DNA of 61,869 bases, filler included. It is 10 parts of 10 records of this genome, joined end to end, with 100 filler letters (N's around TTAATTAATTAA, not from the genome) between each part and the next. Parts side by side here need not be neighbours in the genome. Positions count along the whole stretch, not along the records: positions 6,900 to 19,090 come from SRR7504441_9338; 9 more parts are not named here. The stretch is one strand, 5' to 3'. A model generated the notes under the pieces. That model worked only from the letters and a program-made list of their open reading frames with translations, was not told the DNA's origin and made no database searches. Positions 273-52,252 of the stretch are shown piece after piece. A program made the translations under genes and the position numbers. The number at the start of each line of letters is the position of its first letter. The first letter of the stretch is position 1.

Positions 273-3200
273 ATGGGCACCGCAGGCAGGCTGCTGCTGC
301 TGCTGCTTGGAGCTGTGCTAGAGCGTCTGTGCTGTGCGACACAGCCGCAGCGGCAGTGCCACCTTGAGCCTGGGTACCGGTACGACTCGACGCAGAACAC
401 CACAGCACTGCGGGTATGCACGCCTGGCACCCGGCCGGAGAGGGTGTGCGTGGTGGGCGGCGGCTCGTCCGGCGTCCACATGGGCTGGCTGCTCCGCCGG
501 CGAGGCTTCGAGCGCATCACTGTGTACGAGTCCCGAGGCTGGCTGGGCGGTGACGCCTCCGAAGTGCTGACAGCGGGCAATGTCACCCGGGAGCTGGGGG
601 CGGCATTCCTCTCGCCGGACTATTACGAGGTGCGGGCGTTGTTGCACAGGTACAATCTGACCGAGGTGCCGATTTCTGTAAGCAGTATGGTCCGTTTGCA
701 TTCTGCATCCGGTGCGGTGCAGAGCAGCGAAGCGTGGCTCAATAGCTGGCTGGCCGACTGGACCGGAACCGCCGACCCTGCCACCAATGGCCGTTTAGTA
801 AGCGAGGCGCTGGATAAATATGCCTCGATACACCAACAAATCTTTGGGAGGTACAGTGGCCGATTCCCTCCGAAGCCCAAATCAGCCGAGCTGCTCGTCC
901 AAATCAACGGCACAATTGTCCACTTCCTGCGACGGCATCAGATCGGATTGCTCACGCCTATATTCTATCAGTTCTTCGTATTGCAGGGCATGGGGCTGCT
1001 TGATCAGATGCCTGCGTACTATGTGCTCAAATGGGTCAGCCCTGCCTCTCTGCAAGCTGGTGGGTTTGGGCACAACAGTGATACACCGCTGGCAATGGTT
1101 CAGCAGGGGTATGGTGCCCTGGTGGAGCAGATGGCTGCCGAGGCCCAGTTGGACGTCAGGCTCGGGGTGGCGGTACGCAGTGTGCAACGTTACCCAGACA
1201 AACCAGCACGAATCGAGCTGTCTGATGGCACCTCGAGCTCATGCGACATCGTGGTGCTCTCTGGCCCGATAACAAACTTTGTGCGCGGGAGTGACAGTGG
1301 GGATGTCCCGCCAATTTTGCACCCGCCGACAGCGGAGGAAGTCGAATTGTTTGGCCCCAAGCATGCGATGCAGTTCCTGATCCAGTTGATCCAGTTTGGG
1401 GAGCTGCCTGAGGACTATGGAGCGCTAGAATACTGGTAGCCTCCCCTGATCAATACCCCCACCAAACCAAGCTGTTTCTTGACTGATCCTCTTCAAATTG
1501 ACAGGCCCGATTCATTCAGAGGTAAAGGGCGTGTGATTGTGAAGCGCGACATCAGTGATGCTGAGCATAAGAGCAACCGCACAGGCAGCAGGATTGCTGG
1601 GGTGCAATCGTACTCCTACTGGCCTGAGGTAGCTGCAATACTGCCTGCTCTGCTGTGCCCTGATTATGCCATGTTTGGCAGCCGATTTGCAACCAATCGG
1701 GACATCTCGAGCATCAAAGACAGTGGATTGAATCACAGAACCTCAGTGCTTCCAAACTAATCGCCCGACGGTGGTACAATACCTACCTGTTCCATTACCC
1801 AGACTCTCAATATATCTTGCAAGGCAAGCCATGGCAGCTTGATAGCATACAAATGCTCAATCACACGCTCTATGTTGGTGGCTGCGCTTCTTTCGAGACT
1901 GTAGAGGACTCATTTAGCTATAATCTTGATTTGGTAGCCCGCATTTTTGATCAGGAAACAGAGCTCACACTGCCGACTGCAGAGGCACCAATAGTGCGTC
2001 ATCACCAGGCGCTTGAGCAGTTGCTATTCAACCACAGCATTCCGTGCAACCAGCTCGATCACTTTGTGGCCGTTGATCACGCGGTCTGGACCAGCTTTCT
2101 GTCCAGGCTAGATGCGTTTGCACGCAAGCAGGTTATTATGGATCCTGACACAGGTGGCGATAACTGCACAGTGTGGAGTCATGTGCACTGGGCATCGCGA
2201 GAGCTCTGGAAGAACATCTCATCCGCACAGCTGGCTCGGAAGGACAAGGAGTTCACACAGGCCTTTGGCTACAGCCCCCAAATGCACTCGATCCCCACTG
2301 ATGGAGGGTTGGAAGTGCTTGCAACTGTTGGGCAGCCATTTGCCGCGTCTTTCAAGACTCGGGAGCCGCACGGTCTGCTAGAACGATTAAAGTACGCGAT
2401 CCCATGCGACAGAGTCAGCGCATTTGTGGCTGCCGATGCTGCCTCGTTCACACCTGCAGTTGCAGAGCAGCCCGGGTTTGTGCAGAAGCAGGTATTAGTC
2501 GACCGGACTAGCCAGCCCACATGCAGCGTATGGGTGCATTCCTGGTGGCAATCACGTGCGCTCTGGGAGCAAGTACCAAAGCCGGTGATTAAGCAAGCGC
2601 ACGCTCTGTTTGTTGAGCTGTTTGGTGCGAATCCACTCACGAAAGCCAAACAGGGTCTTGATATTCTGCTCACCACAGAAGCAGTGCCTAATGCTATTCC
2701 TGCCATAAATGGGAATGACGTGGTTGCCTACCAATCGCTGCTGCCTGGACAGAAGGATGTGCGAGGATCGGCCTCCATCAAGAGGTTTGTTATTCCCAAT
2801 AGTATTATCATACGGTGCCAATTGCATAACCACGGACCTCAGGTTTATCGAGTCCGGCCCTCTCCTGCCGGAATCTTTGCGTCACATACACCCGCAACCA
2901 TATCAATTCTGGTTCGCCACTGAAGCAAACGCCCACCTATTCGATGCTGACCCTTGGTCGTTCATTCCTGCGTTTGGAGGACATTGCACTCACGGGATCG
3001 CATCACGCAATGATCTGAATGCATCACTCATTGTTGACGGGCGCGTTGCCTTTACCTGTGTCAACAGCACTGAGTTTGTTAGAATCAATCGAACAGTGTA
3101 CATGAATTCATGTGGCATGTATTTTGATTTCGTTAAAGACCCTTCAAGGGATGTTGCACAAGCGTCCAAGATGTGGACCAAGTGGTTTGGCCAACCTCGT

Positions 3201-3299
3201 GGAGTCGGTCCGATCAATGACGCATGCTTTCAAGATGGTGGCTCTTGGGACGGTGATCCTATTGGCGACTTGATACCCGCAAAGTGTGTGATCAATTAA
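273..3299 (+). CDS. Secreted FAD-dependent PUFA-isomerase/amine-oxidase-like protein fused to two TIGR03792-like (ABM-fold) domains and a C-terminal YHS domain; 4 exons
   Basis: Signal peptide MGTAGRLLLLLLGAVL; Rossmann motif VVGGGSSG...ITVYESRGWLGG...ELGA; C-terminal TLYVGGCASFETVEDSFSYNLDLVARIF as in PAI-type isomerases. GT-AG introns 1436-1504, 1629-1681 and 2785-2842 join ORFs 210-1439, 1479-1760, 1817-2923 and 2709-3299 in frame. Confidence 0.8.
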
Positions 3300-3599
3300 A
3301 TTATTAAGTAGCCGAATGTGTCAGAATACTCAGTGTTATAGAGATTTAAGCCATTTCATTGCTTAACATGACAATATTCTTCCCTTTGAAGATGATTGGC
3401 GATAGCTATAGATTGGCGAATTCGATGCAATCGCGTTTTAGACAGTCAACTCCATACAGAACAAGCAAGGTAGATCTACCATGAGATGTACTCTTTCCTA
3501 AAATGTGATTTCAGCTATCATGCTCTAAAGTTGGTTATGGGTGGTGTCAAAACAGGCCCATTCTGAACGGTGGAAATTATGGCACCCTTCGCTGACACA

Positions 3600-4526
3600 T
3601 CATTCACGGGCGATTAAACACAAGAAGCATAGCCGCAGCCAGTTTGTGAGCTTATTTTCGAAGCGGTCCTTAGCCGGATCGAACCCCGCGCACTTCTTGT
3701 CCTGGGCCACGGCGCTCTGGGTGGAGGTGCACACCGCCAGCACTGCACACTCGATCGCTCAGTCCAGCTGGGCTCGCTCACCTATCGGGTCGTCATGCTC
3801 GCACGGCACAGTCCTCTTCCCCCCGAACACAGCACGGGTCGCCTCGTCGTCGGCCAACACGAAGCTGCCGCTCTGAAGCCAGCCGGAGTTAGCTTGCCGG
3901 AAGCCCTCGGCTGTCTTCTTGCCTGCCAGCACCACCCGGCGCACTGCCCGGCCGGCTGGGCTCGAGCAGTACGCTTGAATGTCGTTGGGCACCGCCGTCT
4001 TGAGGAGCAGCTCCCCGTCCGGCTTGCCCTGCTTCTGGGCGCTCGCAAACAGGTGCCACAGCGCGAACCCTCGCCCAGTGACCCGCCCGAGCTGCTCCGC
4101 GTACCCCAGCTGGGGCCATCGGCCGGCCGACCGGCCGGCAACCCCATCGCGGATGTCGCGGCGGAGCGCGCGGCGCTTCCAGAGCTGGGTCGGGGTGAGC
4201 CGGCGCTCGAATTCGAACTTGACCCCCGCGGTGGGCCAGAAGCCGTCGTCCTCCCGGGCGGCGTACTCCCTGGTCTCGATGTCGGCCGCGGACGGCGAGC
4301 CAAAGAGCACGAGCGTGTGGGCTGGGGTGGCGCCCTCCGCTCGCGGCAGCCCGTGAACGGTCACGGTGCCCTGCCCGCAGCCGCAGCTCCCTTCCGGCGG
4401 ACCGTCGGCCTTGCGCTTGTTGCCCGAGATGTTGCCCGGCATGGATGGTTCAGATCCGTTGTCCGGTGGATCGTGGCACCTGACCGTGGCTTCATTAGGC
4501 GATTTGCTATCCGCGTAGGCGTTCAT
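3600..4526 (-). CDS. Uracil-DNA glycosylase superfamily protein (family 6 / hypoxanthine DNA glycosylase-like)
   Basis: Motif order HGLPR...LVLFGSPS...EY....DGFW...GFALWHLFAS...AVPNDI...VVLAGKKTA. After intron 3743-3781 the frame continues CTSTQSA...ENKLTNW to TGA at 3600. A probable in-frame 33-nt intron lies at about 4110-4142. Confidence 0.65.
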
Positions 4527-6799: not shown

Positions 6800-6899
6800 N
6801 NNNNNNNNNNNNNNNNNNNNNNNNNNNNNNNNNNNNNNNNNNNTTAATTAATTAANNNNNNNNNNNNNNNNNNNNNNNNNNNNNNNNNNNNNNNNNNNN
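6800..6899. other. Artificial contig-joining spacer
   Basis: 44 N + TTAATTAATTAA (stop codons in all six frames) + 44 N. Confidence 0.99.
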
Positions 6900-7029
6900 T
6901 ATAATTATCTAGTAGGAAAACATAAAGGGTGCGCCGAGCTGACGTCGACCGGCTTAATACCGTGTACGCATGACGTACATGTATACTCGACTTACGAGTA
7001 CTCGTACAATCATGACATTGTACGTAGTG

Positions 7030-7830
7030 CTAGCTTAGATCTAGTGCGACGTACGGCTCGTACGCTGGGCTAGCATTGAGGTTCTCTCGACCGGCTTCAT
7101 TGATCGGCAGGCTGATCTGCTGCCCGGAGGCCTCTTGCACGGTCAGCGCCCGCATGTGGCCCCGGAATTCCTCCACTCGCCGGACTAGCGCCTGCTTGTC
7201 CCGCTGCTGCTGCTGCTTGGACTCGGCCAGCGCCTCAGTCAGCGCCTGTAACTCGCCCGTCAGATCCGCCCCCGGGGCTCGCACTGCCTGCACTGCCGCT
7301 CGCTCCGCAGTGAGCTCTACACGCAGCTGTCGGTTTACACTCGCACTCTGCCCAGACTCGCCCTCGAGCCAGGCGCGGCCGCACCTCCGGGGTGCGACCG
7401 GCTCTTCGGTTGGCCAGTGCCGAGGCCAGTCCGAGCTCGCTCTTGTAGAAGGTGACCTCGGCCTCCAGTCGGGCCAGCTGCGCCTCCCGGGCCTGTTCCG
7501 GCTCAGGGGCCGGCCGCTCTTGCTGCGCCCTGCCCGCGGCTCGCCCGGCGCCGGAGCCCCGGCCGCCTGCAGTGCTCCGAGGCCCGCAGCTGCCGCTCGA
7601 GCTGGGCAACCCGCTGCTGGAGAGTCCGAATCTGGTCGTCGCGCCCTCCAATTGAGCTGTCGCACGCCTGGCAGTGCTGCCAGAGCGCTTCGGCCGCGTG
7701 GAGCAGCTGCTTGCAAAACCTGCGCGCCCGCTCGACCACGACCCGGCCAGGCGCACTTGGGTAGCAGCATCCGCTTCTGGGCCAGCTCGGACACTACCCC
7801 AAGCATGGCCTGGTATGACGCCTCCGCCAT
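7030..7830 (-). CDS. Small coiled-coil protein; 4 exons
   Basis: Three ~37-nt introns, including GC-AG 7530-7566, link MAEASYQ...LLPK / FCKQLL...EHCR / AQQERP...RTPE / SASVNRQ...ALDLS; heptad-rich sequence. Confidence 0.6.
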   Translation of the reverse strand: MAEASYQAMLGVVSELAQKRMLLPKCAWPGRGRAGAQVLQAAAPRGRSALAALPGVRQLNWRARRPDSDSPAAGCPARAAAAGLGALQAAGAPAPGEPRAGRSKSGRPLSRNRPGRRSWPDWRPRSPSTRASSDWPRHWPTEEPVAPRRCGRAWLEGESGQSASVNRQLRVELTAERAAVQAVRAPGADLTGELQALTEALAESKQQQQRDKQALVRRVEEFRGHMRALTVQEASGQQISLPINEAGRENLNASPAYEPYVALDLS

Positions 7831-8249
7831 CAGGCCTTACACCACTCGCATGTCGGAGTTCGTATTTGAAGCAACGAGCTCTGAGCCGTAGATCTACGCG
7901 TGGCACAGCTCACGGTACTGTAGGGGGACCCCGGCCTCTGGCAATTGCAGCTGAGTGTACTTGGTACTTGTACTTGGTTGTACGCGATACAAACTAGGTG
8001 TAAATGGCAACGCCCAGGTTCATGCTAGTGTTCGCGGTAGCAGCGCTGTGCTATGTGAGCTTAATGAATAAATAGGCCCCGTTCCTTGTCGTTTGTCCAG
8101 CTTCCGCCCAGTGTCCGTGTCGTCCCCCGAAAGGCCGAAACCGCCATGGCAACAGAAAAGAGCCTAGCCCAAAGGGCATTAAAGGGCATAGTCCGATTGA
8201 TAACCGATTGGATTTATTTTTTATTTGAGAGAAAAATGGATTCAAGGCT

Positions 8250-11200
8250 TCATGCCGCTTGGGCACGATTCAAGAGCTCGTATAGAGACATCGCATGCTC
8301 GACGAGCAAACCATCCGGAAAGTGCTCGAACCATTCCGTTGCTTCCAAATCAATAGCCGCTCCGTAGGTGAGGTACTCCTTCAGTTGCTGATCAGGCTCA
8401 CAATACTCGATCTGCTTGCTCAAAAAGTCGTGCAGCACAGGAACTAGCACGGACAGATCTAGTACCTCGATGGCAGCCCCAATCCCACACTCTGCAGGAA
8501 GCTCGCGCTGAAAGCTGAACCACAGAAACAAGTCAATACCTAGCAAGAAAGCCCTGGCACACCACAGCGGCAAACGATCAGCGAGACTGCCGGAGATTTT
8601 CTCATCGAGCAGCACAAAGAGCGACTCGAGGTGGCCAAGCTGCACATGGTCCAGCGCTGCGAATTGGCAGGACACGTCCCAAGCCTGCAGGAGCACCAGA
8701 ATCAACTGGGCATATGCCGGCAGCCACCTCTTGCTGCAACATTGTCTCACACACGAATGAAGCGAGAGGAGTTGTGGGCTGGGCCAACTGCCCACCCCCG
8801 AAAGCGGCGATGAAGTTGATGCAGTCCTCGAGCACAGACAGCAGGGAAAGAGCAGAATCCTGGGTGTCGATCTGCACAGCTAGAGACTCCACGACCGCAG
8901 TACCAAGGGCTTGCTGACGAATCTGTGATGCAATCAATGCAAGCCTGCCATACACATGCAGGTTGGCAACGCTGCAGTCTACCGCAGGTGCACCTGCCGC
9001 TCTTCTGCACTTGGCCTTTGTACGGATAGTGGCATATATTGACCCCGACAACTGACTTTTGCGAGAAGAGCCGCTTGTTGAGAGACGCCTCGATCGCCTG
9101 TTACACCAGTCAGCTGCGCTGCGATAGGCAAGCCACCCTGAAATTGAAACGGCCATGGTCATAAAACCACTCGATCACAGGGAGTAGGTCCGTTGCACGG
9201 TCATATATGAGCAAGTGCTGCTCGATCGCGATGGGGGAGCTCTGAAAGCTCAAGCATGCTGTTGCCACACCGGTGCCTCGGGAAATGCTAGTGGCTGCTG
9301 GATTGAACAGCCTGTTGTGAAGCTGTGTAAGCCGGTTCAGAATTGCAATCGTGCAGAGACCTGCTGCATCCACCTCACCTCTCGCCACGAAAGGGAGCGA
9401 AAATGCGACCTGAGAACCCACCCTTATCATCAACACACACGCGCAGTTTGATCACACACCGGGGTGCTACTTGTCATCCCACCGCCCCCTGTGCGCGTAC
9501 CAGAGAGGTCGATCTCACCCGAACTGCCAATAAACGGATTGGCCTCGCACTCAAAGAGTAGCTCGATTCCGGGCAACACCGCATCAAAGGCCGAGCAAAA
9601 CTGGTCAAACACTTCGCTAGCCTCTGATTGAGATGAAAGAGGGAGCATCTGAATTACGTCTCGATTAGTTATTTCGGTTGCTTGGTCACGGGTAATTGCG
9701 CGTTGGCCACTAAAGGTATGGAACAGTATGGCGTGCCACTTCAGAACAGCACACATATGCTTGATGAGAGGCAGTTCAGCTTCATGCGCCATCAATTTGG
9801 CTAGCTTAACATGCTTGTTGCGCACTTGTGCAAAGTCCCGCTCGAATGCTGCAAACGTAACTGGCTGATAGTACTGCCACACTGATAGAAAGACAGAATT
9901 GGGGCAGGGGGCGCTTATAATTTCGGCCATTCGCTGTTCTCCAAACACTTGCTGCAGCGCCTCCTTCCTCTGATTGCCTGCAAACACCGACTGCAAGGTA
10001 GACAGGTCTGTGTGCACGAAACGCTTGCGCCCGGGGGCAAAGCTCGTTGAGTAGTGCTGCCCGATGGTGTGCTCCATGGCTGTGCAATATCGGTGGGATG
10101 TAGTAAGCGGTCCCAACGCTGACGCATCCTGAGCTGAATTCCGCATCCTCTTCGCATGTTCCGTCGTCATATTTACCAACATCAGGTGGAGACCAGTGCA
10201 TACAACACCTGGCACCATTCCACTTCTTCGTTCAAGCTCAGATAAATCTTCGCGCGTCAGCTCATCTAAAGCAAGGCTTGCTTGGTGGAACACTCCTTCA
10301 CGAGACTCACCTGCTGTGACACCCAGGATCTTGGCAACGGATGGTATGTCCACTTGGTTCATATCTTCGAGGGCTAGAGCGACCATGAGTCCGATGTGCA
10401 GGAACAACCGTGTTACGCAATCAATGCTATGGTCCTCTGTGTACATTCCTTTGCACTCACGGTTGTAGCCAGGAGCCCCAGTACCTGCCACAAGTCAGGT
10501 TCCCAGCCAACATCGTATCACTTACTCATCCCGCTCAGTTCGTCATATTCTATTTTCCTAGCGCCCTCCACCGTCTCATGATTAGCACCTGGACAGCAAG
10601 CATCATAAGCTGCCCACTGCAGGAACTACCTCCGATAGGAGCTCCGCAGCCAGGGTGCCCACAAGTTGCTGTTTCCATGGGCATCGTGCACTCACCGACA
10701 CTATAAGGGTGCCCATTTTCACAGAAATACCATCCAACTGCGCCCATTGCTCCTGCCGCCACCGCGAAATCCGACTTAGGCATCGATGGGATGTAGAGCC
10801 CATTGGACTTCAGCAAGCGGTAAGGCTGACAAATCACTGTGAAAATCCATGAGTGAGGACAGACGTAGGCAATCAGTGCCAAATGCTTTGCAATCTGTTG
10901 TCTGATCTCACTTACGATACCACTCGTATTCTCACTGAGCAGACAGCCCTGCTCAATGAACTTACCTAGTGTGGTCTCAATCTCATCGCTGCTTTGGGCG
11001 TCTGCATAGATCATGCCGAAATTTAAACCAAGCCCATCACAAGTCGACTTGTTGAGCCGGATTTGGCGCTGCTGCTGCATGTGCCATGTTTCAGGGAGCC
11101 AACGCGCTTCCTCGGGGTTTTCACGATCGTCAAGATAGCTGTACTTGCTAATGGCAAGCGGCCAGAATACACGACAGGCCACTTCAGACAGGTCAAATGA

Positions 11201-14200
11201 TTCGATCAGGTCAATCATTGCATCCTCGGCTAAGCCAATATCTAATGTGCCAGCTTCAGCTCCCATTAATACGGTCTTGAGACGACTGAAAGCCGTGAGG
11301 GCATGCTCAGGCTCAGCAGAAGGCGACCATTGCTCGAGAATCCAATAAGTCGGATCGGGCAGTAGCTGACTGCGCAAGTGAGATGGATATAGGTCGATTT
11401 CATCAGCAAGCCACTCCATGAGTGAAGGGCTGAGGCTCAGCGCGTGTGCGAGAGCGCCTTCGCCGCCCAGATGGTGAAGGGCCTGGAGCATATACTTCTT
11501 AGGTCCCTCCTCTGTAAGCAGCCTGCGGAGCGACCACTGCTCCATCTTGCCTTCTCCTGCTGCACCCATGTGAGAATTGCCAGTAGCCTTCTTAGAAGGG
11601 GCTGTCCTCGAGGGCTCTAATTTGAGGACTACTTTAGCATACGCGTGCAAACTTGCTTGGACTCTGACAAGTGATGTCAGGTACGCCTCGGTAGAAACAC
11701 CAGGCATGCCCCCGCCACAGGCGGCAATTTCCCATTCCTTCTCGCTGATTGGCACTGAAGTTGATTGTGCTACCTGCTTTTCGCAAACCTGGCTGAGCAT
11801 CTGGCGTCGAAACAGCGAAGAATCACAGACTTTGCTGTCAGAAGCCCAAACAGCATCGTGTACAGCTTTCACTGGGGTCATCGCAAGTAAAGAAGAGACA
11901 ACTTGTCGCTGATAGCACAAGCTTCCACGGTCCTGAACCGCCATGATTGCTTGCAACCCACAGCCGGCAGGCCCACTCACTGCAAACTCCATGAAGAAGG
12001 ACAACAGCGTTGGCAGCGCTGGATGGCTGGACAGCATGTCTATTGATGGCCGTGTGAGCACTACCTGCGCTGCATAATCGGCGATCAGAGCATTTACCAT
12101 GTCTACATCGGCATTGCTGACGCAAGAGGCCACGGAAATGCAAAATTCGACCGAAGGTTCCCAGTGCCTACATAGCCCGAGCAGTTCTTTGAAAATGGAC
12201 AGCAGCTGATCGGTCCGACTTGTATCCTGCGCCTCAGCATCTAGCGTGTGAACTCCGTGTTGGCCAAAGAGCAAATTCAACTCATCTGTACCGATGACCA
12301 CTTCTTCATCAGACTCGTCCTCTGCATCTTCGTATTTGTCGTCATCGTCGTCGCCATCTTTATTAGTGTCTTGGGCCTCCTTTTCCTTAGTCTGGGCACG
12401 CTGTGATCTGATCAACTCCAACACAGCTGCCATGGTCCTGAGTCCCATCCATCCAGCAAAATAATCAGGAATTACTCCATCACTGTCCCCATGTTGTGTC
12501 ATCAAGCAGTGATAAATGCTCTTGCTCTGCGTGACCAAGTAGCAGAAGTGATTAAACTCTTCAAGGCTGGAAGCATTGTCCAGATACTGCCATAGTATCT
12601 CGTTTGTTGTGCGAATGATCGCTAAATCAAGTCGAATCAGATTTTCTCGTAATGGTTTCCCCTCCGCGCAAAAAGACTCTCCGTTTTCACGGTCTTGTAA
12701 CTGGTCCAGTCGGCGCGCCAGGGTGCTGATAAGGCCCGGAAGCTGAGTTTGGGACACCAGCAAGCAAATCCGGTCCAGCTGGTCTGAGACATGCCACAGA
12801 GCGACGTGAACTCCATGTGGAGAGACCTGTCCGCCCAAGAGAAAACTGATCACGTGCTTATACAGAGACACTTGCGATTGGAAGGGAAGGCCGGGAAAGC
12901 GTGGCATAGTCAGCGCAACAACATCATGCAGATAGGCTAGGCCATGCGGGGACCACGCATTCACAACATCTTCTCCCAGCATCGCCACACAAGCTCGATA
13001 CATGGGAAATTCGTCAACTTCAGCAAGCGCCTGGAGAACATCCTTGGAACCTATCACCTCGATGAGTCGATGAGAGAAGGGAAATTGAGCAACCAGTGGC
13101 CCATGGCGTCCACTGTTAGGTGTGCTTTCGTTGTGCACAGCCTTGCCAGAGGGGAGCATCCATGGGTTTGAAGCAGACGAGACTGGCACGTTACACACCA
13201 TTATCTGTGCGAGACGGAACCATAGCGACTCACAGCCACCCCCAAATTGTTCTAGAAGCAAGACATTAAAGTTCGTATCCAGGACAGCAATGATCACCAC
13301 AAGAGCACGCACAATGGTTTCTTCCAGGGCAGTCCATACCTTTTGGCGTAGGGAGCCTCCGTCAGATTTCATTGCAAGTGCTGTGTGGAAATGAAGTCCG
13401 TCATGCTTGACTTCGCTGTTTGCCTCTAGCACCTTGAACAAAAGCTGCTCGAGAATACCCAGGAAATCTGAACTCTCGGACCACTTGATCATGGTCAAAA
13501 ATCGGTGCGCATGCATATCCTGGCCTTCTGATGAGGCAACTGACGGAGCCTGACAACGTGACAAAGCACTTGAGAATCTCCGCCGAATCGTGGCACGAAT
13601 GTCCCAATCCAACGCCCTGAGAAGATCTGCGGACGCTGTTTGTAGCATCCACTTGGTCGTCAGAGAGCCTCGGTGAGGCCGAAGATCATCTAGAAATGCG
13701 CACTGCCAACCTGTGTAATCAAGAACCCAGTGCCTCTGCCTACTCTCCAACGAAGGCGGGAGGTGCACTATGAAGACGACATTAGCATTTCGAGGAAGCT
13801 GCTCCGAGGAGCAGAGATATTGAACATGGTTTATCATTGTCTGAGAACATTCGAAAGGGTCGCACTGTATGATCAACATTTGTGTCTGATCAGACGCACC
13901 TTCGGCAAATGAAGCTAGAACATTCCGCATGTGCTTTTGACTGGGCACGTCTACCAACTGTAATAATGTAACTGCCCAGCTTTGAGCCTGCAAGAGTTCT
14001 AAACACTCAAGACCAAGATGTGACGTTGGAGAATGTGTGACGATAATCAAATTCTTGGATGTGTTGGGCTCATTATGCACTTTTGACATCAGGAGTGCCA
14101 TAAGATCAGATCTCTCTTCAAAGTAGTTCGGTACAAACGCTTCGAGCAGAGGCGAAGCTATAACTGCTGTTGGCAGTGCAGTTGCTGCTAGGGCTGATTT

Positions 14201-17200
14201 TATGTCATCTATACAGGACAAGCTGTCATGGTTGTCGTCAAGATCTGACATGAAGAGCACCAGTGACGGAACTGTACCTTCGTGATAACCTGCAAACAGA
14301 TCTTGTTTGCTCGGCATCTCAGTATCACTGAGAATTTCCTCGATCCAGGCTTCGATCTGAGAGACTGCGTCCTTCTGGTTAGGACATAGCACGTCTTGCC
14401 ACCTGAACAGCTGCTTTTCGAAACGATTGAGAAGCGGCAGATCCAGATGGTCGTATGCATGGTTCCGCTCGACAATGACAATTAGCTTGAAACCCTCAGA
14501 TACTGTACACAAAGTAGAGCGCGTGCCTATGGCCATCCGTAGCATACGTGTCGACGAGCCATCTTCGTCTGTGCGAACCACATACCGTTGATTCAGGACG
14601 TCATAGAGAGCCTCGTAAATTGAATCTAGGTTAATAAGGACAAGCACGCTGCCATTTGCCATGGCTTGTTTCACCTCGTGAATTTGTTCAAGTAAGTAAA
14701 AGTCGTTGAAGTCGTCCGGAAAACAGGAGCCATGGAGAACTTTGAAAGAACGGGGGAGAATCCGTTTAATGAGAGAAAGAGCCGCGCAGTTCCTGGTGAG
14801 GAGCATCAGGTGCCTTGCATCATCATCGTCCAGGCATGCGAGGGCTAGCTCAGACACCCGCGGCCGCTCCCAGTCTTCGGCTGGGATGTCACTGAAGCAC
14901 GAGTGATGGAATACTGACAGAACTTTATCAATCACCTCAGGCTTTCCTCCGAAATTTCGGCAGAGTGCAATACACAAGCGTCGAGGATCATCCAAGGCTG
15001 GGTCTTTGCGAAGCAGTTTAATCAGTTGATAATAGTCTCGCATGCCGATGAAATCACGACCATCTTGCTGAGTATAGATCTGATGGTATGCTTCTGCAAT
15101 TTTACCAAGCGCGTCTTCAACTGTCTTACCCGATTTCGTGATTATTCGCTGACCCGTGAACTGTATGTCAAGCGCACTAGGCTGTGGGCGTTGGAGGCAA
15201 ATGGCTCTGTTCATTTTGGCGGGATCTAAGACCCAGTTGGAAAGCCCGACGATAGCGACCTCTGGATCGAGCAGAATGGTGTGCAGCACCTTCAGTGGCA
15301 TGTGTGGCGAATGTTCTGCAAGGCCAACTTCATCCAAAAGAAGGACTGTAATGCAATCTTGTGCGTGTTGCTGGTACCGCGTCGCAATCCTGAACTGTTG
15401 CTCGATCCCTTCAGCTGTACTCAGTGGAGAGCATTGGTACGCGAATATGTAGACACTGGGATATTGATGCCAAAATTCGTGGAGAGACTGCTTTCCCTGA
15501 AGATTTGAGGCAATGACTTGCAAGGTTAGAGTTTTTGAGGACCCGGGTTTCCCCACAACAAAAACAGGGATTCGGTTCAGGATGCAAACGGTAACCACGA
15601 ACAAATTCTCACGAAGGGCGTCATTCATGGCGATGGTATCATCCACAGCCATATGCTTTGTCAGCCTCTTCTGACCGAGTGTCACGATCTTTGAAAATGC
15701 ACCTGGCTGGAGAAGTACGGAGAATCCTGGCGATTTTGTGTGGTCCATACCTTTGACAGGCTTGTTTGGTAGACGCTGTATGTCAACCACGCCCATACGG
15801 TGCAAGACCTCAAGGAGTTCATGCCAATATGCGTTGCGAAAGTCCTGATCCCCAATCCGGTAATAATAGACGTGAGCCAGTGCCAGCACGCACGCATTCA
15901 CAAACGGCGATAGGAGGACCTTTTTCGGACCCAGTGGAATAAAGAACTTCACGAGGCGCAGAACGCGCTTAACATCTCGAAGCGAAGTAGCCGAGACGTC
16001 TCCCTCGAATCTTCGAACATAAAGCTGGGAAGTAACGATCATCTCAGCAAGAATCTTGCAGTTGCGCGCTTCTGACGAGTCACCCAGGTAACGCGAAACC
16101 ATTGCGTGGCACGAAAGCCGCTCCATCTCCTCCGGGAGCTGCCCAAAATCGAACAGAAGTTCATGCATACTCTGAGGGAGTGGATGGACACGGTACACGA
16201 GAGACTCCATCAAAGCATCCTGTTCACTCCTCCTGCCGTCTCCCGTACCGGATGTTTCAAACACTAGGCCAGCAGCAGGACTAGCGTTCACCGGCCTGCG
16301 CCTGTAGGGATTCGCAGCTGCAAGAATTTGGATCTGCTCGGCTATCCGTCTTCCGTTGAGAGAGCGATGGACAATAGCTTCGCACACGAGACCCATCGAT
16401 GCACAGGTATTGCACTCATCGAGGAAGACATAAATCTCAGGTGCATCCTCCGAAGCCAAAGCTTCTTCTGCAGATGCAAAAATATCTAAAATGTCCTGAT
16501 CTTCGGTTCCACCGTGCACGTTAAGGACAAATAGTTTGACTCCCAGCCAAGCACACAGATATGAGACTAGCATTGTCTTTCCACAGCCACACTCACCCAT
16601 CAAGATCACAGGGATGCCGCAGCGGATGCGGACAAACACTGCAAGAATTTTGAGGAGCGTATCCCATGTTAAAGCATATGCTCCCCCCAGTAGAGCATCT
16701 GCCTGCGAGGCCTCTATCTGTCGGTCTGTTAGTGCACTCAGAATCTTGTAAAACTTTCTGTTCTGCCCTCCAATGGTTGACGTCTTATCTTTGTGCATAT
16801 CGTCGACGAGCCTATCGAAATCAGTCGCAAGATAATCACCGACAGTGATGCGATTGGTCTCAAGGTGCTGCAGCAATAATGGATGCATCGAATTCCTCAT
16901 GGCCTTGGGAGTTGTGCTGAGAAAGTAAACGGAATACGATTTGTTTGAAAAAAGCATGCATTCGTGATTACTTTCATTCCAGGTCAGTGTCGTATCTTCC
17001 ATAAAGAATCTGTCTCCGTCATCTTCCAGGTCTTCTGGGGCACTGCCTTCCTCTTCTGCCCCGAATTGGTTTACTTTGATTTTCATAGTGACCTCATTGA
17101 CATCTGGCGGCATGTACATCCATTCTCCTGTGATTTCACTAGATACAGAAATAGCAAACGCGCCTTCTTCCAGGGTGCAGACTGGAGAGATCTGCCACAT

Positions 17201-19090
17201 CGTCTCGCCGGCATTCCAGATCAAATGGCGGCGGTGGTCTGCGGATTCCTGCATCAGGTAGTGCGGTTTCCCAGCAACATCGTCATATGGAGGTTGTCGC
17301 ATGTAGATACCATTCAGATCTTTGGTCTTGCACCCTCTCACAGTCACTGCGCATGCTGCATGCCCCTCCACATTCTTTGAATGTGTGAGTGACATGGTTC
17401 TATCACTGTCCCAACCGGGCGAGGTGGTCCACATACTTTGGATATCACCATCAGTCGAACAAGAAAATACAGGCCCGCTAGGCATGATCACGTCGTCAAT
17501 AACCCACTGATTAGTCACACCGCGGTAGTACAACCAGAACACGTCCTTGCCAAACACGGGCTTACCGTCATTGGAAAAGCTCTGCCGGTACCAGTAACCA
17601 TTGAATTGGCTCCTGCTCATGTCGAAAAACACAATAGATTCAATTTGTCCCTGCTTGCTCGTATCGCTTTTGCATCTCCTCGTGCAAAACTCTGCCATAC
17701 AGTTCATAAGTTACCTACACCCCATTTGGGTCTCACCTGCAGCCGTTTTACAGAGGAAGTACACCATTTCCGCCTTGATTTTACTCTTGTTGACCACGTC
17801 ATCGTCGCCTTCCGCCTTTGGGTCGGGCATGCACGCCTGCGCAATAGGCGAGTCGCGATGATGTATCTGCTTGAGTTCCCAGTAGAGCACATTCACAAAG
17901 TTCCATAGGCTCAGAAGCGACACGGCACTCCGGCTTTGCAACTCCGAGTACTGGAGCAGTAGGTCAAAACAGCGAGAAGCAACAATCTCCTGACCCGGCG
18001 CGGGTCCTTCGTAGTCTAGAGGGAAGCCTCTCTGCTGTTGGTGGATATCCAGTGCTGCACATACATAGCGCAGCCTTTCATGGCAGGACGGGCTGCAAAG
18101 CGAGGTAGCAGCTGAAGCAGTTGTGCCATCAAATCGAGCAGACTCCATCTGGACAACGCCCATTCCGTTCAGGAGTGTAGCATAGTCTGAGCGAAAGTTT
18201 TCCCTGGAAGCTTTCGCCTTTACCTGTGGTAATAGCATGGGAGAACGAACCCGAGCGCACAATTCGCCAGAAGCCATTTCAAAAGCAAGTCGGCAGGCTT
18301 CAGGCGTCGAAACGTAAATCAACCGGCCAGTATTGGTTTCGACGAGACCCTCGTAGAACATGAGCTGCCACAAAACCGAGTCTATTCCACCGAGCACAGG
18401 AGAGGCTAGGTCCACATGAAGCATCAGCCGGCCGTCCAAGCAGTAGGAATCACCAGACATCCGAGCTCTGACGGCTGTACAGTCCATCTTGACGTAGTGC
18501 ACAATCTTACCTAAAGGGACTGGCAACCGGCGGAGACTCTGAATGGGCGATGCTGACCCACAACGTTCATGCGTTCCCAACAGAAAGGTATGAATCAGTC
18601 TTAGGCGCTCAATTGCACCCAAGTCAGCGGGGCGATTTCTGACCAAAGCAGTCCTCTGTGATAAGTGCGCCATGAAAGCTGGTAACGACATTGTGTAGTT
18701 TACCGGCACATGGACATATTCATGCCCAGACTCGACTGCAGCGCAGCGCACATTGAAGGTCTTTCCGCCCCCGCTGAACAACGACGTATGCGCAGCAACG
18801 CTCGCACCTTCAGGTGTCAGGGATTCCCGGCCCATCAGACAACGAGCGATTCTTTGCAGCTCAATTAGTGGCAACGGCTCTGCCGACACCCTGGCGTGGT
18901 TGTACTGTGCAACAAGATGTTGCCTCTCAGTAGCCCCAGAAACGAGCAGGAGTGGAGCACTACCAGGCACAGGCTCTCCGATTGCCGATGCAAGTTGCCG
19001 CTGCTTGGTGTATGAAAGCTCCTCCGTGGCAGCAATACAGTACACGCCCGAACTTCGGTCCGGATCGCAGCATTTCCATCGGGCGATCAG
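8250..19090 (-). CDS. RNF213: RNF213/mysterin-like giant AAA+ ATPase with RZ-finger E3 module (5'-partial, >3,400 aa)
   Basis: AAA modules PVILMGECGCGKT...VFLDECNT and VVGKPGSSKTL...LLLDEVGLAEHSPHMPLKVLH; LYDVLNQRY and PLLNRFEKQ; RZ finger WYFCENGHPYSVGECTMPMETATCGHPGCGAPIGG|ANH. Introns 17692-17736, 10589-10629, 10485-10525 and five further 39-50-nt introns join the ORFs to the stop at 8250. Confidence 0.88.
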
Positions 19091-19190
19091 NNNNNNNNNN
19101 NNNNNNNNNNNNNNNNNNNNNNNNNNNNNNNNNNTTAATTAATTAANNNNNNNNNNNNNNNNNNNNNNNNNNNNNNNNNNNNNNNNNNNN
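19091..19190. other. Artificial contig-joining spacer
   Basis: 44 N + TTAATTAATTAA + 44 N. Confidence 0.99.
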
Positions 19191-23954: not shown

Positions 23955-24054
23955 NNNNNNNNNNNNNNNNNNNNNNNNNNNNNNNNNNNNNNNNNNNNTT
24001 AATTAATTAANNNNNNNNNNNNNNNNNNNNNNNNNNNNNNNNNNNNNNNNNNNN
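23955..24054. other. Artificial contig-joining spacer
   Basis: 44 N + TTAATTAATTAA + 44 N. Confidence 0.99.
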
Positions 24055-28122: not shown

Positions 28123-28222
28123 NNNNNNNNNNNNNNNNNNNNNNNNNNNNNNNNNNNNNNNNNNNNTTAATTAATTAANNNNNNNNNNNNNNNNNNNNNN
28201 NNNNNNNNNNNNNNNNNNNNNN
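28123..28222. other. Artificial contig-joining spacer
   Basis: 44 N + TTAATTAATTAA + 44 N. Confidence 0.99.
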
Positions 28223-32002: not shown

Positions 32003-32102
32003 NNNNNNNNNNNNNNNNNNNNNNNNNNNNNNNNNNNNNNNNNNNNTTAATTAATTAANNNNNNNNNNNNNNNNNNNNNNNNNNNNNNNNNNNNNNNNNN
32101 NN
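32003..32102. other. Artificial contig-joining spacer
   Basis: 44 N + TTAATTAATTAA + 44 N. Confidence 0.99.
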
Positions 32103-35871: not shown

Positions 35872-35971
35872 NNNNNNNNNNNNNNNNNNNNNNNNNNNNN
35901 NNNNNNNNNNNNNNNTTAATTAATTAANNNNNNNNNNNNNNNNNNNNNNNNNNNNNNNNNNNNNNNNNNNN
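35872..35971. other. Artificial contig-joining spacer
   Basis: 44 N + TTAATTAATTAA + 44 N. Confidence 0.99.
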
Positions 35972-40922: not shown

Positions 40923-41022
40923 NNNNNNNNNNNNNNNNNNNNNNNNNNNNNNNNNNNNNNNNNNNNTTAATTAATTAANNNNNNNNNNNNNNNNNNNNNN
41001 NNNNNNNNNNNNNNNNNNNNNN
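40923..41022. other. Artificial contig-joining spacer
   Basis: 44 N + TTAATTAATTAA + 44 N. Confidence 0.99.
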
Positions 41023-48220: not shown

Positions 48221-48320
48221 NNNNNNNNNNNNNNNNNNNNNNNNNNNNNNNNNNNNNNNNNNNNTTAATTAATTAANNNNNNNNNNNNNNNNNNNNNNNN
48301 NNNNNNNNNNNNNNNNNNNN
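48221..48320. other. Artificial contig-joining spacer
   Basis: 44 N + TTAATTAATTAA + 44 N. Confidence 0.99.
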
Positions 48321-51300
48321 CTCATCAAGGCGCTGAGTCAATGTCGCATCTCCAAACACTAGAGCGCCAAACCCTCCGAGATCTTCCTCCGGATCCCAGA
48401 AGTAAAGCCGTTTGTGCGATTCGCATTCGAAAAGAAACACAACATTGCCAGCTTCAATCAGAGCCTCCACAGTTTGCTGAGCGATCGATTTAGTATCCAT
48501 ATCCTTGGGGCAGGAGCACTGCGCTGTAAGTAGACTCTGATTGCAGCAATCCCATTTAGACACACTCTCTTTGGCGTGGATCTGAATGGCATAGTGCCCC
48601 GGATGGCTTCGTATGGCGGAAGCGCCCGATCTGTTGCACTTGCCTGCGTACTCTAAACATCCACAGCAGCTCCAGGAGACACTCGAAGTGCATCTCCTGA
48701 GATTCTTCATCGCACCAAACTCCGGTTCCCACTCCGACCAGCTCGCGGACTGCCAGCCACACCACTCACCCGAGTGCTCGGCGACGTTCTGGCGGCCAAC
48801 AGAACTACACTGATCAGCGTACGCTTTTGCGCCACAGCATGACCAGCCCACCTGACCATGCACGTGCGCTCCCCACAGGCCACCATTCCGTACATGGGCC
48901 TCTACGTTCAGCCGATTCTGTCGACCGCACGCGCTACCAAAGTGTTCATCGCCACAGCAGCTCCACATGAGACGAGCACTGTGCTCGTCGTACTTTATTA
49001 GAGTCCAGGTGCCGCCTTGATGCGTCCTGACTAGGTTACTCTCATCGCGCTGCATTTGCCTCCGGTGAGCTGCTAGCACCGCGGCTAGCTTGGCTCTAGC
49101 TTCGTCCATCCGCTGGCTCGCTTCTAAGCTCCAGCCTTTCCAAGAGGCTACACACGTTTCATATCGGAAGGCATTCAACCCGTTCAGCCGCTGCTGGAGG
49201 TGTGGCTGGCTTGCAAGCTCCTGGTCACTCTCTGCTAGCACCATGTCACAGACTCGCCCGTATTCGGCTGATGCGACGAGAAGCCCGTGGAAATATGTAT
49301 TGTGACGCTCAAGCCGTAGCCTTCGCAGTCTCTGCAGCGCGTCGGCGTCAACATGGCCTTCATGCTCTAGACTAGATGGTGCACTGTCACGGTCGTCAAA
49401 ACACTCAAGACGGGCCTTCTTACAAGCTAGCTGGTACCAGTATACCGCCCTCCTGCTGAAGCCAAGCCCGGTGACTGCTGCAAAATTGTGGCTCAGATTG
49501 GGCCAAACTGCCCCTGACAGCCCGTTGGCATCGCACCACTTTACTACTGTCACAGCCACCGCCGAGTCAGGATCCAACTGCGGCGCGAATGACCACTTGC
49601 TGCCATCGAAACAGGCCCATTCCAGATCTGACGGCGCAGCAAGCCCGAGTCGGAGCATCAGCCCAGCCTGCAGCGTGACCAGCTGCTCTTGGCACACCTC
49701 AAAAACGCAAGCCGTACGCTGTGCTGTGTGCTTGCAGTCCGAAACCACTAGGCTGAGCATCCCACTCGGCGCCACTCTTGCCCACTCCGTCGGTAGCACA
49801 GGCCCGCCCTCCCGAAGCCGGTGACCCATAAGCCGGTGCTGCGAGGCCTGTACGCCATAAAGCACGAGTGCAATCGCTGGCGCTGGCGAGAACCATCGTT
49901 GTGGCTCTGGGAAGTCTGCGTAGTTGCACAGTAACCGCTGGTCGAACCATCCTTTTAGCTCGTCGTCGCCTGCCCCCAAAGCTCAGCCCAGTCACACCAG
50001 GCCTCCTCACGCAGCAGACTGAAAAAGTGGCTCAGCATAGTCTGCGGTCGGCACCTCAAGGACTTGACCCAGAGACTCGTCCAAAGGTCACAATCCAGCG
50101 CCAACTCGCAGGCACGCTGCACCACAAGCAGCAGCAGCTTGGTCCACATGACCACCTTTGTGGCCTCCCAGGAGCTGGCGTGGCTGCGGAACTCGACGGT
50201 TGGCTTGCCTTGCGCGAGCAGATTCTGGAGGTTGAGTTTGTAATACCTCGGTGCGCTGTCCGCTAACTCGACGGCCTTCAACAGTGGGTTGGCTGGGGTA
50301 GCGGGATTTAGCCATTCGCACAACTGTTGCATTGTCGAACAGCTGTCCACCTTGTCAAGTGCATGTTTGTCTGTACCTAGTAAACTCCTATTGGACATGG
50401 CAAACATATTATAGTCGGCCCGTCGGCTTGGCGGCTGAATCAAGTCAATGACCTTCTCAAAAGTGACCCAGAGCTTGCACAGCGCCTTGAGTTGTGGCGA
50501 AGGACAGTCCGCAGAGCCCCACACCCAGCTGCACTGACCAAACCCAACGTGGACGTGCAAACCAGTTGAGGTGTTGGCCCTGCTGTCGAGAGTGCAGGCT
50601 GCACTGACCGCCGAGCGCAGCTGCGCAAGCCCTGCGCTCCCATGCAACACCGGCGAGCTCAGCTCGAAGCACAGCACCGGTCCTCTGACCCCAGCCGGGG
50701 GTTTAATGCTCGAATCCGGCTCGAAATTCCATGTATCGAAGCTGTCCACTCTCTTGGTCTCCGACTGGGTGGCGCTGATGCCTGTCTGCTGCTGCCAGAG
50801 GGCCTTGAGCCGCTCCAGGCTCATCTCGGCCAGCACGAAACCCTCGAGCTCGACCCCAAAGCTAAGTGGAACCATCAGTCGATCTTCCCCAATCGGCAGG
50901 CTCTCGGGCACCTCCGAAGAGCGGAGCGGAGTGCTCGAGAGCCGGCGCAGAGGCCCTGGACCCAGGTCCTGCTGGAGCTGGCGCGAGACAAACTGGCGGA
51001 CGAGCTGAAGATACCCAGTCAGATGCTCGCGCCGCCAGCTCTCCAAATCCCAGCCGTCCTCTTGAGACGGCAGATTGGTGAAAGCGCCCGCTATCACCAC
51101 GCCATCCGGCTCAAAGGGCGCTACGTACGAGACCAGCTGCTCGCCGGTCACTGGGTCGGCGTATGGAGCGGTCCAGCCGCGGCCGGCCCGCCCGTGCTCG
51201 AACCACGGCCGGCCGGTCAATTCATACTCGCCAGACCACTCATATACGGGCTGGAGCTGACCACCCTCTTGGACCGCCGAAGGCTCGTACGCCGCATAAC

Positions 51301-52051
51301 GGCCAGCAGCCACCTCCGGCCAGCCAAGCAGCAAGTCGGCGCCGTATCGGTACTGGCCATCGGCTAAGGCAGAGCGATCCATCGCGTAGACACAATAGTA
51401 CTCACCGGGCAGCGCCAACCCTAGGCACTTTGAGTGGATCCGACTGAGACGACACGGGCACTGCTGCCAGGCCCGCCAGGCCGCAGCCAGCCCCGCGCGC
51501 CGCCGCTCGGCACTCGAGCCGTGCCCCGCTGAGGCCCACGCCTCGGCCGCTGCCGCCATGGTTGCGGCCGCCCCCGGAGCCCACTCCCGGGGCTCCAGAT
51601 CGCCCACCCAGGCGTACATGATGGCCACCAGATCGCCGTCGGCAGTGGCAGCCCGGACCGGCCGCTTGGCGTAATCGCACCCACTGCACTCGAACATTTC
51701 AATCATCCGAGCCTCGGCCGCCGATAGGTCTGGCATCGTCACCCCGGCCAGCACATCCGACTGGTCTCCGGGCACGGCCCCGGGCACGGTCAGCCCTGGC
51801 AGCTGGACCAGCCGCCAGCCGCGCACCGAGGCCGGGACGGTGGCCACCCGCCGGCTGAGCAGCCCGACCCGGACCTGCTGGTCGAGCAGGCTGCCGTAGG
51901 CGAATACAGGAGGACTGGTGGGATCTTCCGGCTCCGGGGGCAGTGGAGTCCGCGCAGGCGGCGGCTTGCCCGCGCGGGAGGACCGCTCCCGGGAGAGCGT
52001 CCTGCGCAGCTGGCTCAGCTCCGCCGCCGCCTCCCCGATTGAGCCCTCCAT
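48321..52051 (-). CDS. Multidomain protein: AIG2/GGCT (with Cache-like insertion) + Amidoligase_2-type ligase + second GGCT-like domain + coiled coil + 4 BTK-like Zn motifs; 3'-truncated
   Basis: VFAYGSLL...FE...YAKRPV...MYAW; RPWF...WTAPYADPVTGEQLVSYVAP; SFGVELE...EPDSSI...FELSSPVL...STGLHVHVG...RYYKLNL...TVEFR. A 41-nt GT-AG intron at 49970-50010 joins the 704-aa and 568-aa ORFs in frame. Then GPVLPTEWAR...GMLSLV...W....GLSGAVW and four H..G.W/Y...W(S/D)CC...C repeats. Confidence 0.75.
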
Positions 52052-52152
52052 TCGCCGGAGATAGGTCACGACCTCACTGGGCGCGCCAACCGAACGGCCG
52101 CGGCGATCTCCAACCGCAAAATTCAGAGTGATTTTAATCTATTTTTGTCTAG

Positions 52153-52252
52153 NNNNNNNNNNNNNNNNNNNNNNNNNNNNNNNNNNNNNNNNNNNNTTAA
52201 TTAATTAANNNNNNNNNNNNNNNNNNNNNNNNNNNNNNNNNNNNNNNNNNNN
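52153..52252. other. Artificial contig-joining spacer
   Basis: 44 N + TTAATTAATTAA + 44 N. Confidence 0.99.

Follow-up and report, generated by a model that had tools for sequence, protein, structure and literature searches.

A RING-less RNF213-family protein with intact AAA3/AAA4 motifs and a complete RZ finger, predicted from a contig of an aquatic eukaryote

RNF213 (mysterin), a ubiquitin ligase linked in humans to immunity and to moyamoya disease, is a giant vertebrate protein in which an AAA+ core is combined with an E3 module and an RZ-type finger. In the accessible portion of one report (PMC11549300), the RZ finger of the human protein is described as holding zinc through C4505, H4509, C4525 and C4528, with C4516 as the nucleophile and H4537 as the general base; the same portion states that both coat formation and ubiquitylation of lipopolysaccharide (LPS) by mammalian RNF213 need the Walker motifs of AAA3 and AAA4 together with H4509 and C4516, and that the RING is dispensable for the ubiquitylation of bacteria. 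A second RZ-bearing protein, ZNFX1, carries a finger with a catalytic Cys/His pair according to the available part of another study (10.1101/2025.10.14.682297), and one preprint, as far as its available text goes, traces the RZ domain of ZNFX1 to choanoflagellates. Here, we describe an RNF213-like gene on the minus strand at positions 8250-19090 of a 61,869-base window, by which we mean the whole stretch of DNA that was analysed. The gene lies on the piece 6900-19090 (12,191 bases; SRR7504441_9338). With a probability of roughly 0.8, we take it to be a nuclear gene of an aquatic eukaryote that would encode a giant RNF213-family protein of a RING-less AAA+/RZ branch, predicted to act as an ATP-controlled transthiolating E3 ligase. 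The original prediction, made from the letters of this DNA, had proposed two AAA+ modules, RNF213-type motifs and a complete RZ finger in the same interval, and had read them as an antibacterial or antiviral ubiquitylation system.

Comparison of the large exon with all Protein Data Bank (PDB) sequences by a single-sequence search (phmmer) returned RNF213 at E 6.7e-126 and 424 bits through three collinear stretches, namely AAA3, AAA4 with the region downstream of it, and the RZ region. With a profile built from 12 sequences (the window protein and 11 relatives), RNF213 was matched at E 0 and 1088 bits, and profile positions 341-2920 were aligned with residues 1828-4614 of the mouse RNF213 chain in one alignment (~2580 collinear positions). 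The RNF213-type relationship proposed at the outset is borne out by both searches. The two AAA+ modules with intact Walker A and Walker B motifs were also recovered as originally read: in AAA3, Walker A is GECGCGKT (16574-16597) and Walker B is VFLDECN (16409-16429), whose D431 and E432 (P0001 numbering) are invariant in 12/12 sequences; in AAA4, Walker A is GKPGSSKT (15530-15553) and Walker B is LLLDEVG (15323-15343), both invariant in the 12-sequence family alignment. By HMMER alignment, all four motifs, which are invariant across the 12 family members, stand opposite their counterparts in mouse RNF213, residue for residue. Upstream of them, an AAA2-like P-loop, SGGGKTF, was located at 18755-18775 (model residues 106-112; the family consensus here is GxGKxF). 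Downstream, another AAA+ module and a helical region after it (10733-14143) correspond in linear order to the rear AAA modules, hinge and E3 module of RNF213. The AAA2-like P-loop, AAA3, AAA4 and the module that follows were the parts of the AAA ring that were seen, with AAA1 and part of AAA2 lying off the contig. Pfam searches of the protein gave the RZ finger, AAA-family matches at two places and little else.

The E3-like part was also examined by structure prediction. An AlphaFold2 model of 1174 amino acids, reaching up to and including the RZ finger and computed from a 31-row alignment, had a mean predicted local distance difference test (pLDDT) score of 73.0 and a predicted template modelling score (pTM) of 0.60. 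When this model was submitted to Foldseek, ranks 1-8 were all RNF213 chains (E 8.5e-13 to 3.7e-9 over ~1300 columns), with the focused human E3-module map following at rank 10 (E 1e-3, 933 columns). Outside RNF213, the top entry was Avs3, at E 4.7e-4. The module after AAA4 was found to fold as AAA+, with generic AAA+ matches by VIA at Z ~10 over model residues 5-264. The VIA-align comparison of the E3-region model covered entries other than the RNF213 chains, which exceed 3000 residues, and 72 of its 1000 entries were unaligned.

The RZ finger (10575-10732, model residues 2772-2810) was detected as Pfam PF20173 at 48.2 bits (cut-off 27, E 8.5e-13). In the raw frame, the match covers the profile only as far as position 45 of 54. 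The last histidine comes from the small next exon and is gained only once the 41-nucleotide (nt) intron at 10589-10629, which lies inside the finger, is removed. After splicing, C2775, H2779, C2786, C2795, C2800 and H2809 (numbering of the partial model) are all present, in the pattern C-x3-H-x6-C-x8-C-x4-C-x8-H. All parts of the finger are predicted to be there: four zinc ligands, a cysteine matching C4516 and a histidine matching H4537. The original statement of a complete finger stands once this intron, the second in the predicted gene, is taken into account. Because collinear homology from AAA3 to the C-terminus, intact Walker motifs and a complete RZ finger are found together, the predicted protein is a member of the RNF213 family in the broad sense of an AAA+ core with an E3 module and an RZ finger.

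No RING was detected in this protein by several approaches. The Pfam scan at E values up to 1 returned no RING or U-box family, except for a 0.34 match overlapping the RZ finger, and the C3HC4 RING pattern was not found in the model of 3510 amino acids. The same pattern detects the RING of a hemichordate protein annotated as 'rnf213-alpha-like' (P0245) at 3677-3716, ~500 residues before its RZ finger. In the window protein, no stretch of 60 amino acids holds more than seven Cys and His combined, and a C3HC4 RING in the E3 module ~500 residues before the RZ finger, as expected under a strict definition of an animal orthologue, was not found. When 16 C-terminal halves were aligned with MAFFT, loosely in this part, 10 of the 12 relatives lacking the RING pattern had mostly gaps in the columns where P0245 and P0257 have their RING, and the other two, P0166 and P0183, had different inserts there. 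The window protein has an acidic low-complexity stretch (12302-12391, model residues 2219-2248) where RING-bearing relatives align their RING in this loose alignment. Among 133 sequences of at least 1300 amino acids, the window's own two included, the RZ pattern was found in 41 and the RING pattern in 2. As predicted from these sequences, the RING-less AAA+/RZ architecture is widespread in protists and a moss, and hence is no special feature of the source organism. The absence of the RING is consistent with its dispensability for bacterial ubiquitylation in mammals, as stated in the accessible part of PMC11549300.

The predicted gene comprises eight exons (17737-19090, 10630-17691, 10526-10588, 9460-10484, 9137-9409, 8994-9097, 8728-8944 and 8253-8684) and seven GT-AG introns of 39-50 nt; the longest exon has 7062 nt, and the spliced, stop-free partial product has 3510 amino acids. 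In the frame map, the minus-strand frame is open over 19090-17714 and over 17710-10553, below which shorter open stretches with frame switching lead to the stop codon at 8250-8252. Intron 1 (17692-17736, 45 nt, with GTGAGA...CAG ends) is in frame and contains the in-frame TAA at 17711-17713, and intron 2, of 41 nt, interrupts the RZ finger after ...CGAPIGG. These are followed by intron 3 (10485-10525, 41 nt), intron 4 (9410-9459, 50 nt), which was the best among eight stop-free candidates, intron 5 (9098-9136, 39 nt), which takes out two in-frame stops, intron 6 (8945-8993, 49 nt) and intron 7 (8685-8727, 43 nt). Enumeration of introns gave a GT-AG interval of 39-50 nt across every frame change near the 3' end; tblastn with nine relatives tracks the same frame changes, with the last residues of the relatives reached at 8256-8271. 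A further 13 in-frame GT-AG intervals, three of them upstream of the alignment, were weighed as possible hidden introns; the comparison covered the ten inside the aligned part, and all ten were rejected, as only 0-4 of 15 relatives have a gap there. The presence of introns means that the source is eukaryotic.

At its other end, the gene is cut. By tblastn, the first contig bases align with residue 752 of P0007 (4038 amino acids) and residue 1170 of P0008 (4163 amino acids); judged from these two relatives, the predicted gene is 5'-truncated, with ~750-1170 N-terminal residues, corresponding to ~2-3.5 kb, off the contig. No Pfam domain was found in the N-termini of P0007 and P0008. The interval 8250-19090 on the minus strand given in the original prediction agrees with the stop codon at its lower end, and 19090 proved to be the end of the contig rather than the start of the gene. 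A real RNF213-like gene is accordingly retained, and its description is corrected for seven short introns and for the cut 5' end.

Relatives of the protein are numerous. A word-indexed search gave 818 proteins at E <=0.001 among 8000 scored candidates. When the E3-like part, which is poorly conserved, was used in an exhaustive search, 372 representatives were found at E <=0.001, of which 107 were at <=1e-10 and 43 at <=1e-30. A search of longer proteins with the E3-like region yielded one match among 488 candidates and did not recover full-length animal RNF213. The best protein relatives, environmental sequences and diplonemid transcripts, are 51% identical in the core (BLASTP). Diplonemid relatives in EukProt belong to Lacrimia, Namystynia, Flectonema and Sulcionema; dinoflagellate relatives were found in Symbiodinium (labelled RNF213) and Polarella (labelled 'RZ-type domain-containing protein'), and others in a metagenome-derived Prymnesium genome (haptophyte), Ectocarpus (brown alga), Sphagnum (moss), octocorals, a hemichordate and the marmot. 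One candidate for human RNF213, P0173, has the human length (5207 amino acids) and was rejected as such, being a diplonemid protein.

The original prediction had called for a phylogeny with RNF213 and ZNFX1 homologues from across eukaryotes. In two trees of relatives, the window protein was grouped with protist and moss proteins, apart from those of animals. In a FastTree analysis of 112 core regions, it was placed in a clade of 41 rows with protist and moss rows (local support 100), separate from a 59-row octocoral clade. An IQ-TREE analysis was made with LG+G4 and a short search over 62 rows and 836 columns, with branch support from the Shimodaira-Hasegawa-like approximate likelihood ratio test (SH-aLRT). 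In this unrooted tree, a branch with SH-aLRT 100 divides 18 rows from 44. The 18 rows hold all named animal rows (Glandiceps and four octocoral rows) and a group with U-box- and RING-bearing proteins, and the 44 hold the window protein with diplonemids, dinoflagellates, Prymnesium and Sphagnum. Within the latter, the window protein belongs to a 38-row clade (SH-aLRT 99), with the metagenome proteins P0010 and P0015 as nearest neighbours (support 84, not starred), and forms a long separate branch with 54-57% identity to its relatives over the trimmed columns. Since the trees are unrooted, a gain of the RING on one side and a loss on the other are not separable. The trees exclude the marmot protein P0053 on the ground that the AAA core is repeated in its gene model (coverage 1.24 of the query core, span 1539-3977); this repeat is probably a fused or duplicated annotation. 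As a separate observation, RNF213-like proteins that cluster with the octocorals (P0044-P0123, ~3900 amino acids) have no RZ finger among their precomputed Pfam domains, and may represent an RZ-less octocoral expansion.

Among sequencing runs matching the contig, all that carry near-identical DNA are metagenome runs from aquatic samples or seawater, and none is an RNA run. DNA 95-100% identical to parts of the contig occurs on short, low-depth contigs of four such runs from three studies, each of which contains a share of 0.06-0.17 of the sampled contig words; one of these metagenome contigs extends beyond 19084. Differences among the four runs were listed for 40 of 46 places, a small sample covering parts of the gene only: 35 of the 40 are coding, with 26 synonymous and nine non-synonymous variants, two lie in an intron and three outside the gene. 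Because the variants are mostly synonymous (26 vs 9), they support the reading frame and purifying selection acting on it. Taken with the relatives and the trees, these results point to an environmental, probably planktonic, eukaryote as the source and speak against an animal contaminant; we infer that the source is unicellular.

Between the AAA2-like P-loop and AAA3, the predicted protein has an all-beta insert (17105-17611) of ~170-200 amino acids in two repeats, with the repeat pattern NG.Y.R...GKP.Y....L.W....W.I. It was modelled by AlphaFold2 at pLDDT >90 and is present in the family consensus. No Pfam family was matched. Foldseek gave weak matches to beta-trefoil and PRYSPRY folds at E 0.08-0.3 and none to RNF213, and VIA gave a DNMT5 region at Z 7.1 with a root-mean-square deviation of 9.9, and PliC at Z 5.5. 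In the Atlas, only unnamed clusters of ~95 amino acids from bacteria, haptophytes and giant viruses were returned, with low recognition. From these models, the insert is a candidate recognition module, with no specific ligand supported.

The window protein is collinear with vertebrate RNF213 (6tax, 7oik, 8s24, 9g08 and 9jw1) between AAA3 and the C-terminus and shares with it both Walker motifs of AAA3 and of AAA4, a helical fold resembling the E3 module and the six functional RZ residues; it differs in lacking the RING, in the spacing of one RZ knuckle (C-x4-C, not C-x2-C), in its all-beta insert before AAA3, and in its separate branch in the tree. With the RING-less proteins of diplonemids and dinoflagellates, it shares the AAA core and the RZ finger without a RING, the clade and the conserved beta insert, whereas its identity to them is at most the BLASTP value given above for the core. 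ZNFX1 has in common with it the RZ finger, but Pfam found neither a superfamily 1 (SF1) helicase nor NFX1-type zinc fingers in the window protein, and ZNFX1 has no dynein-like AAA core. Midasin and dynein likewise have concatenated AAA+ modules of the dynein/MoxR kind; however, the window protein has no MIDAS domain, stalk or linker, and neither a MIDAS nor a VWA family was found in it by the Pfam scan.

Several points weigh against the assignment given here. The second zinc knuckle of the RZ finger (10640-10660) reads C-x4-C (CGHPGC) in place of the C-x2-C of human and mouse, a form that recurs in relatives as CTHKGC in the diplonemid protein P0173 and as CxxPGC in the family consensus. In the E3-like region, identity to RNF213 in the Foldseek alignments is only 13-15%, with a query-normalised template modelling (TM) score of 0.35-0.40, and the AlphaFold2 model is weak ahead of the RZ finger, with pLDDT <50 at model residues 1114-1137. 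All seven introns are predicted, introns 4-7 each having been picked among several stop-free candidates, and any N-terminal arm, CBM20-like module or AAA1 would lie in the missing 750-1170 residues. Other identities of the gene were weighed against this background. The original prediction had named midasin and dynein beforehand as best hits that would contradict it, and neither was the best match. A midasin- or dynein-type AAA+ protein merely bearing an RZ finger would agree with the midasin matches around the AAA3 Walker A region (single sequence, E 1.9e-16 over 80 residues; profile, 56 bits over 44 residues; 56-61 bits across both searches), and with the superposition of dynein AAA modules on single AAA domains of our models (Z ~7-10). 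Yet RNF213 was matched at 424 bits with the single sequence, at 1088 bits with the profile and over ~2580 collinear positions, versus 44-80 residues for midasin, and we regard this identity as practically negligible. An animal contaminant contig with an ordinary animal RNF213, also raised beforehand, might be suspected from the octocoral, hemichordate and marmot homologues, which show 33-37% identity in the core, and short introns do occur in some animals. The closest proteins (51%) are nevertheless environmental sequences and diplonemid transcripts, the branch with SH-aLRT 100 parts all named animal rows from those of the window, in agreement with FastTree, the RING is absent where the hemichordate protein has one, and an exon of 7062 nt stands beside introns of 39-50 nt; a contaminant is highly improbable. 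Towards the 3' end, the raw frame contains in-frame stops and changes of frame, which could point to a decaying or inactive copy, but a GT-AG interval of 39-50 nt spans each break, the relatives align across to their last residues, the catalytic motifs are all intact, and synonymous variants prevail (26 vs 9), which leaves a pseudogene very unlikely.

A probably active RNF213-family enzyme of an aquatic eukaryote is the preferred identity, and its role was weighed separately. The same enzyme may have a housekeeping function in the quality control of organelles, lipid droplets or membranes. A lipid-droplet role is known for RNF213, and a 2026 preprint, going by its title, reports that the protein acts on damaged mitochondria. 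The family occurs in phototrophs and heterotrophs (dinoflagellates, diplonemids, a haptophyte, a brown alga and a moss), and the few variants (26 synonymous, nine non-synonymous) indicate purifying selection rather than rapid evolution, although this sample is small and covers parts of the gene only; we consider a housekeeping role quite possible, if short of an even chance. On the defence reading of the original prediction, the protein would serve cell-autonomous immunity in the way of animal RNF213, coating and ubiquitylating bacteria or viruses inside the cell, or the non-protein molecules on their surface. The AAA3 and AAA4 Walker motifs and the RZ residues matching H4509 and C4516 are kept, the conserved beta-rich insert could serve as a ligand-binding module, and the part that is missing, the RING, is the one described as dispensable for bacterial ubiquitylation in the accessible text of PMC11549300. 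However, Pfam scans recognised no carbohydrate-binding domain, no linked defence genes were found (neighbours beyond the spacers are unlinked), the substrate-recognition N-terminus lies off the contig, mammalian RNF213 also has roles unrelated to infection, and presence in moss and algae is equally compatible with a general cellular role. By analogy with the mammalian protein, defence against bacteria or viruses may be one possibility among several for the role of this protein, and a rather doubtful one. A bolder and distinctly speculative proposal is that the RING-less AAA+/RZ form is the older form of RNF213, to which the RING was added on the animal side, and that in plankton it is a defence enzyme for non-protein surfaces, whose beta insert recognises the ligand. 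If this were true, bacterial envelopes or viral factories would be among the non-protein surfaces ubiquitylated by a widespread eukaryotic enzyme, and a planktonic protist would be able to defend itself cell-autonomously against prey, symbionts or giant viruses.

For the RING-less RNF213-family ligase that we favour, a mechanism may be proposed by analogy with mammalian RNF213. An E2 loaded with ubiquitin would hand the ubiquitin to Cys2786 of the RZ finger, and His2809 would aid its discharge onto the substrate, which may be a non-protein molecule joined by an ester bond. By binding and hydrolysing ATP, AAA3 and AAA4 would gate this activity or a cooperative assembly on the target surface. 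No RING would be involved.

RING-less RNF213-like proteins are already present in public databases, partly labelled as such, and the gene in the window adds one more; no paper on protist RNF213 homologues was found in the literature searched, supplements aside. As a single gene, truncated and known from sequence alone, it is a modest finding. The wider pattern, visible in the databases, is that RNF213-like giants with an RZ finger and active-looking AAA3 and AAA4, but without a RING, are common outside animals. This pattern fits the mammalian result, as given in the accessible part of PMC11549300, that the RZ finger and not the RING carries the unusual ligase activity, and tractable protists may therefore be used to ask what the job of the core machine is.

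The remainder of the window concerns other DNA. Its ten separate contigs are joined by nine identical artificial spacers (44 N, TTAATTAATTAA, 44 N) at 6800-6899, 19091-19190, 23955-24054, 28123-28222, 32003-32102, 35872-35971, 40923-41022, 48221-48320 and 52153-52252, and because these join separate contigs, synteny across them is meaningless. On the same contig as the gene, the 3' flank (6900-8250) has ~62% G+C, compared with 49-53% in the gene, and contains a coiled-coil-like open reading frame (ORF) on the minus strand at 7033-7836 with weak Pfam hints (Lectin_N 0.019, TPR_MLP1_2 0.1). In the 3' untranslated region, the metagenome contig of run X4 differs by a 1-base deletion and an 11-base insertion at 8092 and 8184. 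On another contig, an unbroken ORF of 3114 amino acids on the plus strand (52205-61549) is rich in teneurin-type EGF repeats (EGF_TEN, E 2e-135), and the DNA there has a strong AT skew. An ORF of 727 amino acids on the minus strand at 49955-52138, on a further contig, encodes both a GGACT (gamma-glutamyl cyclotransferase-like) domain and an Amidoligase_2 domain.

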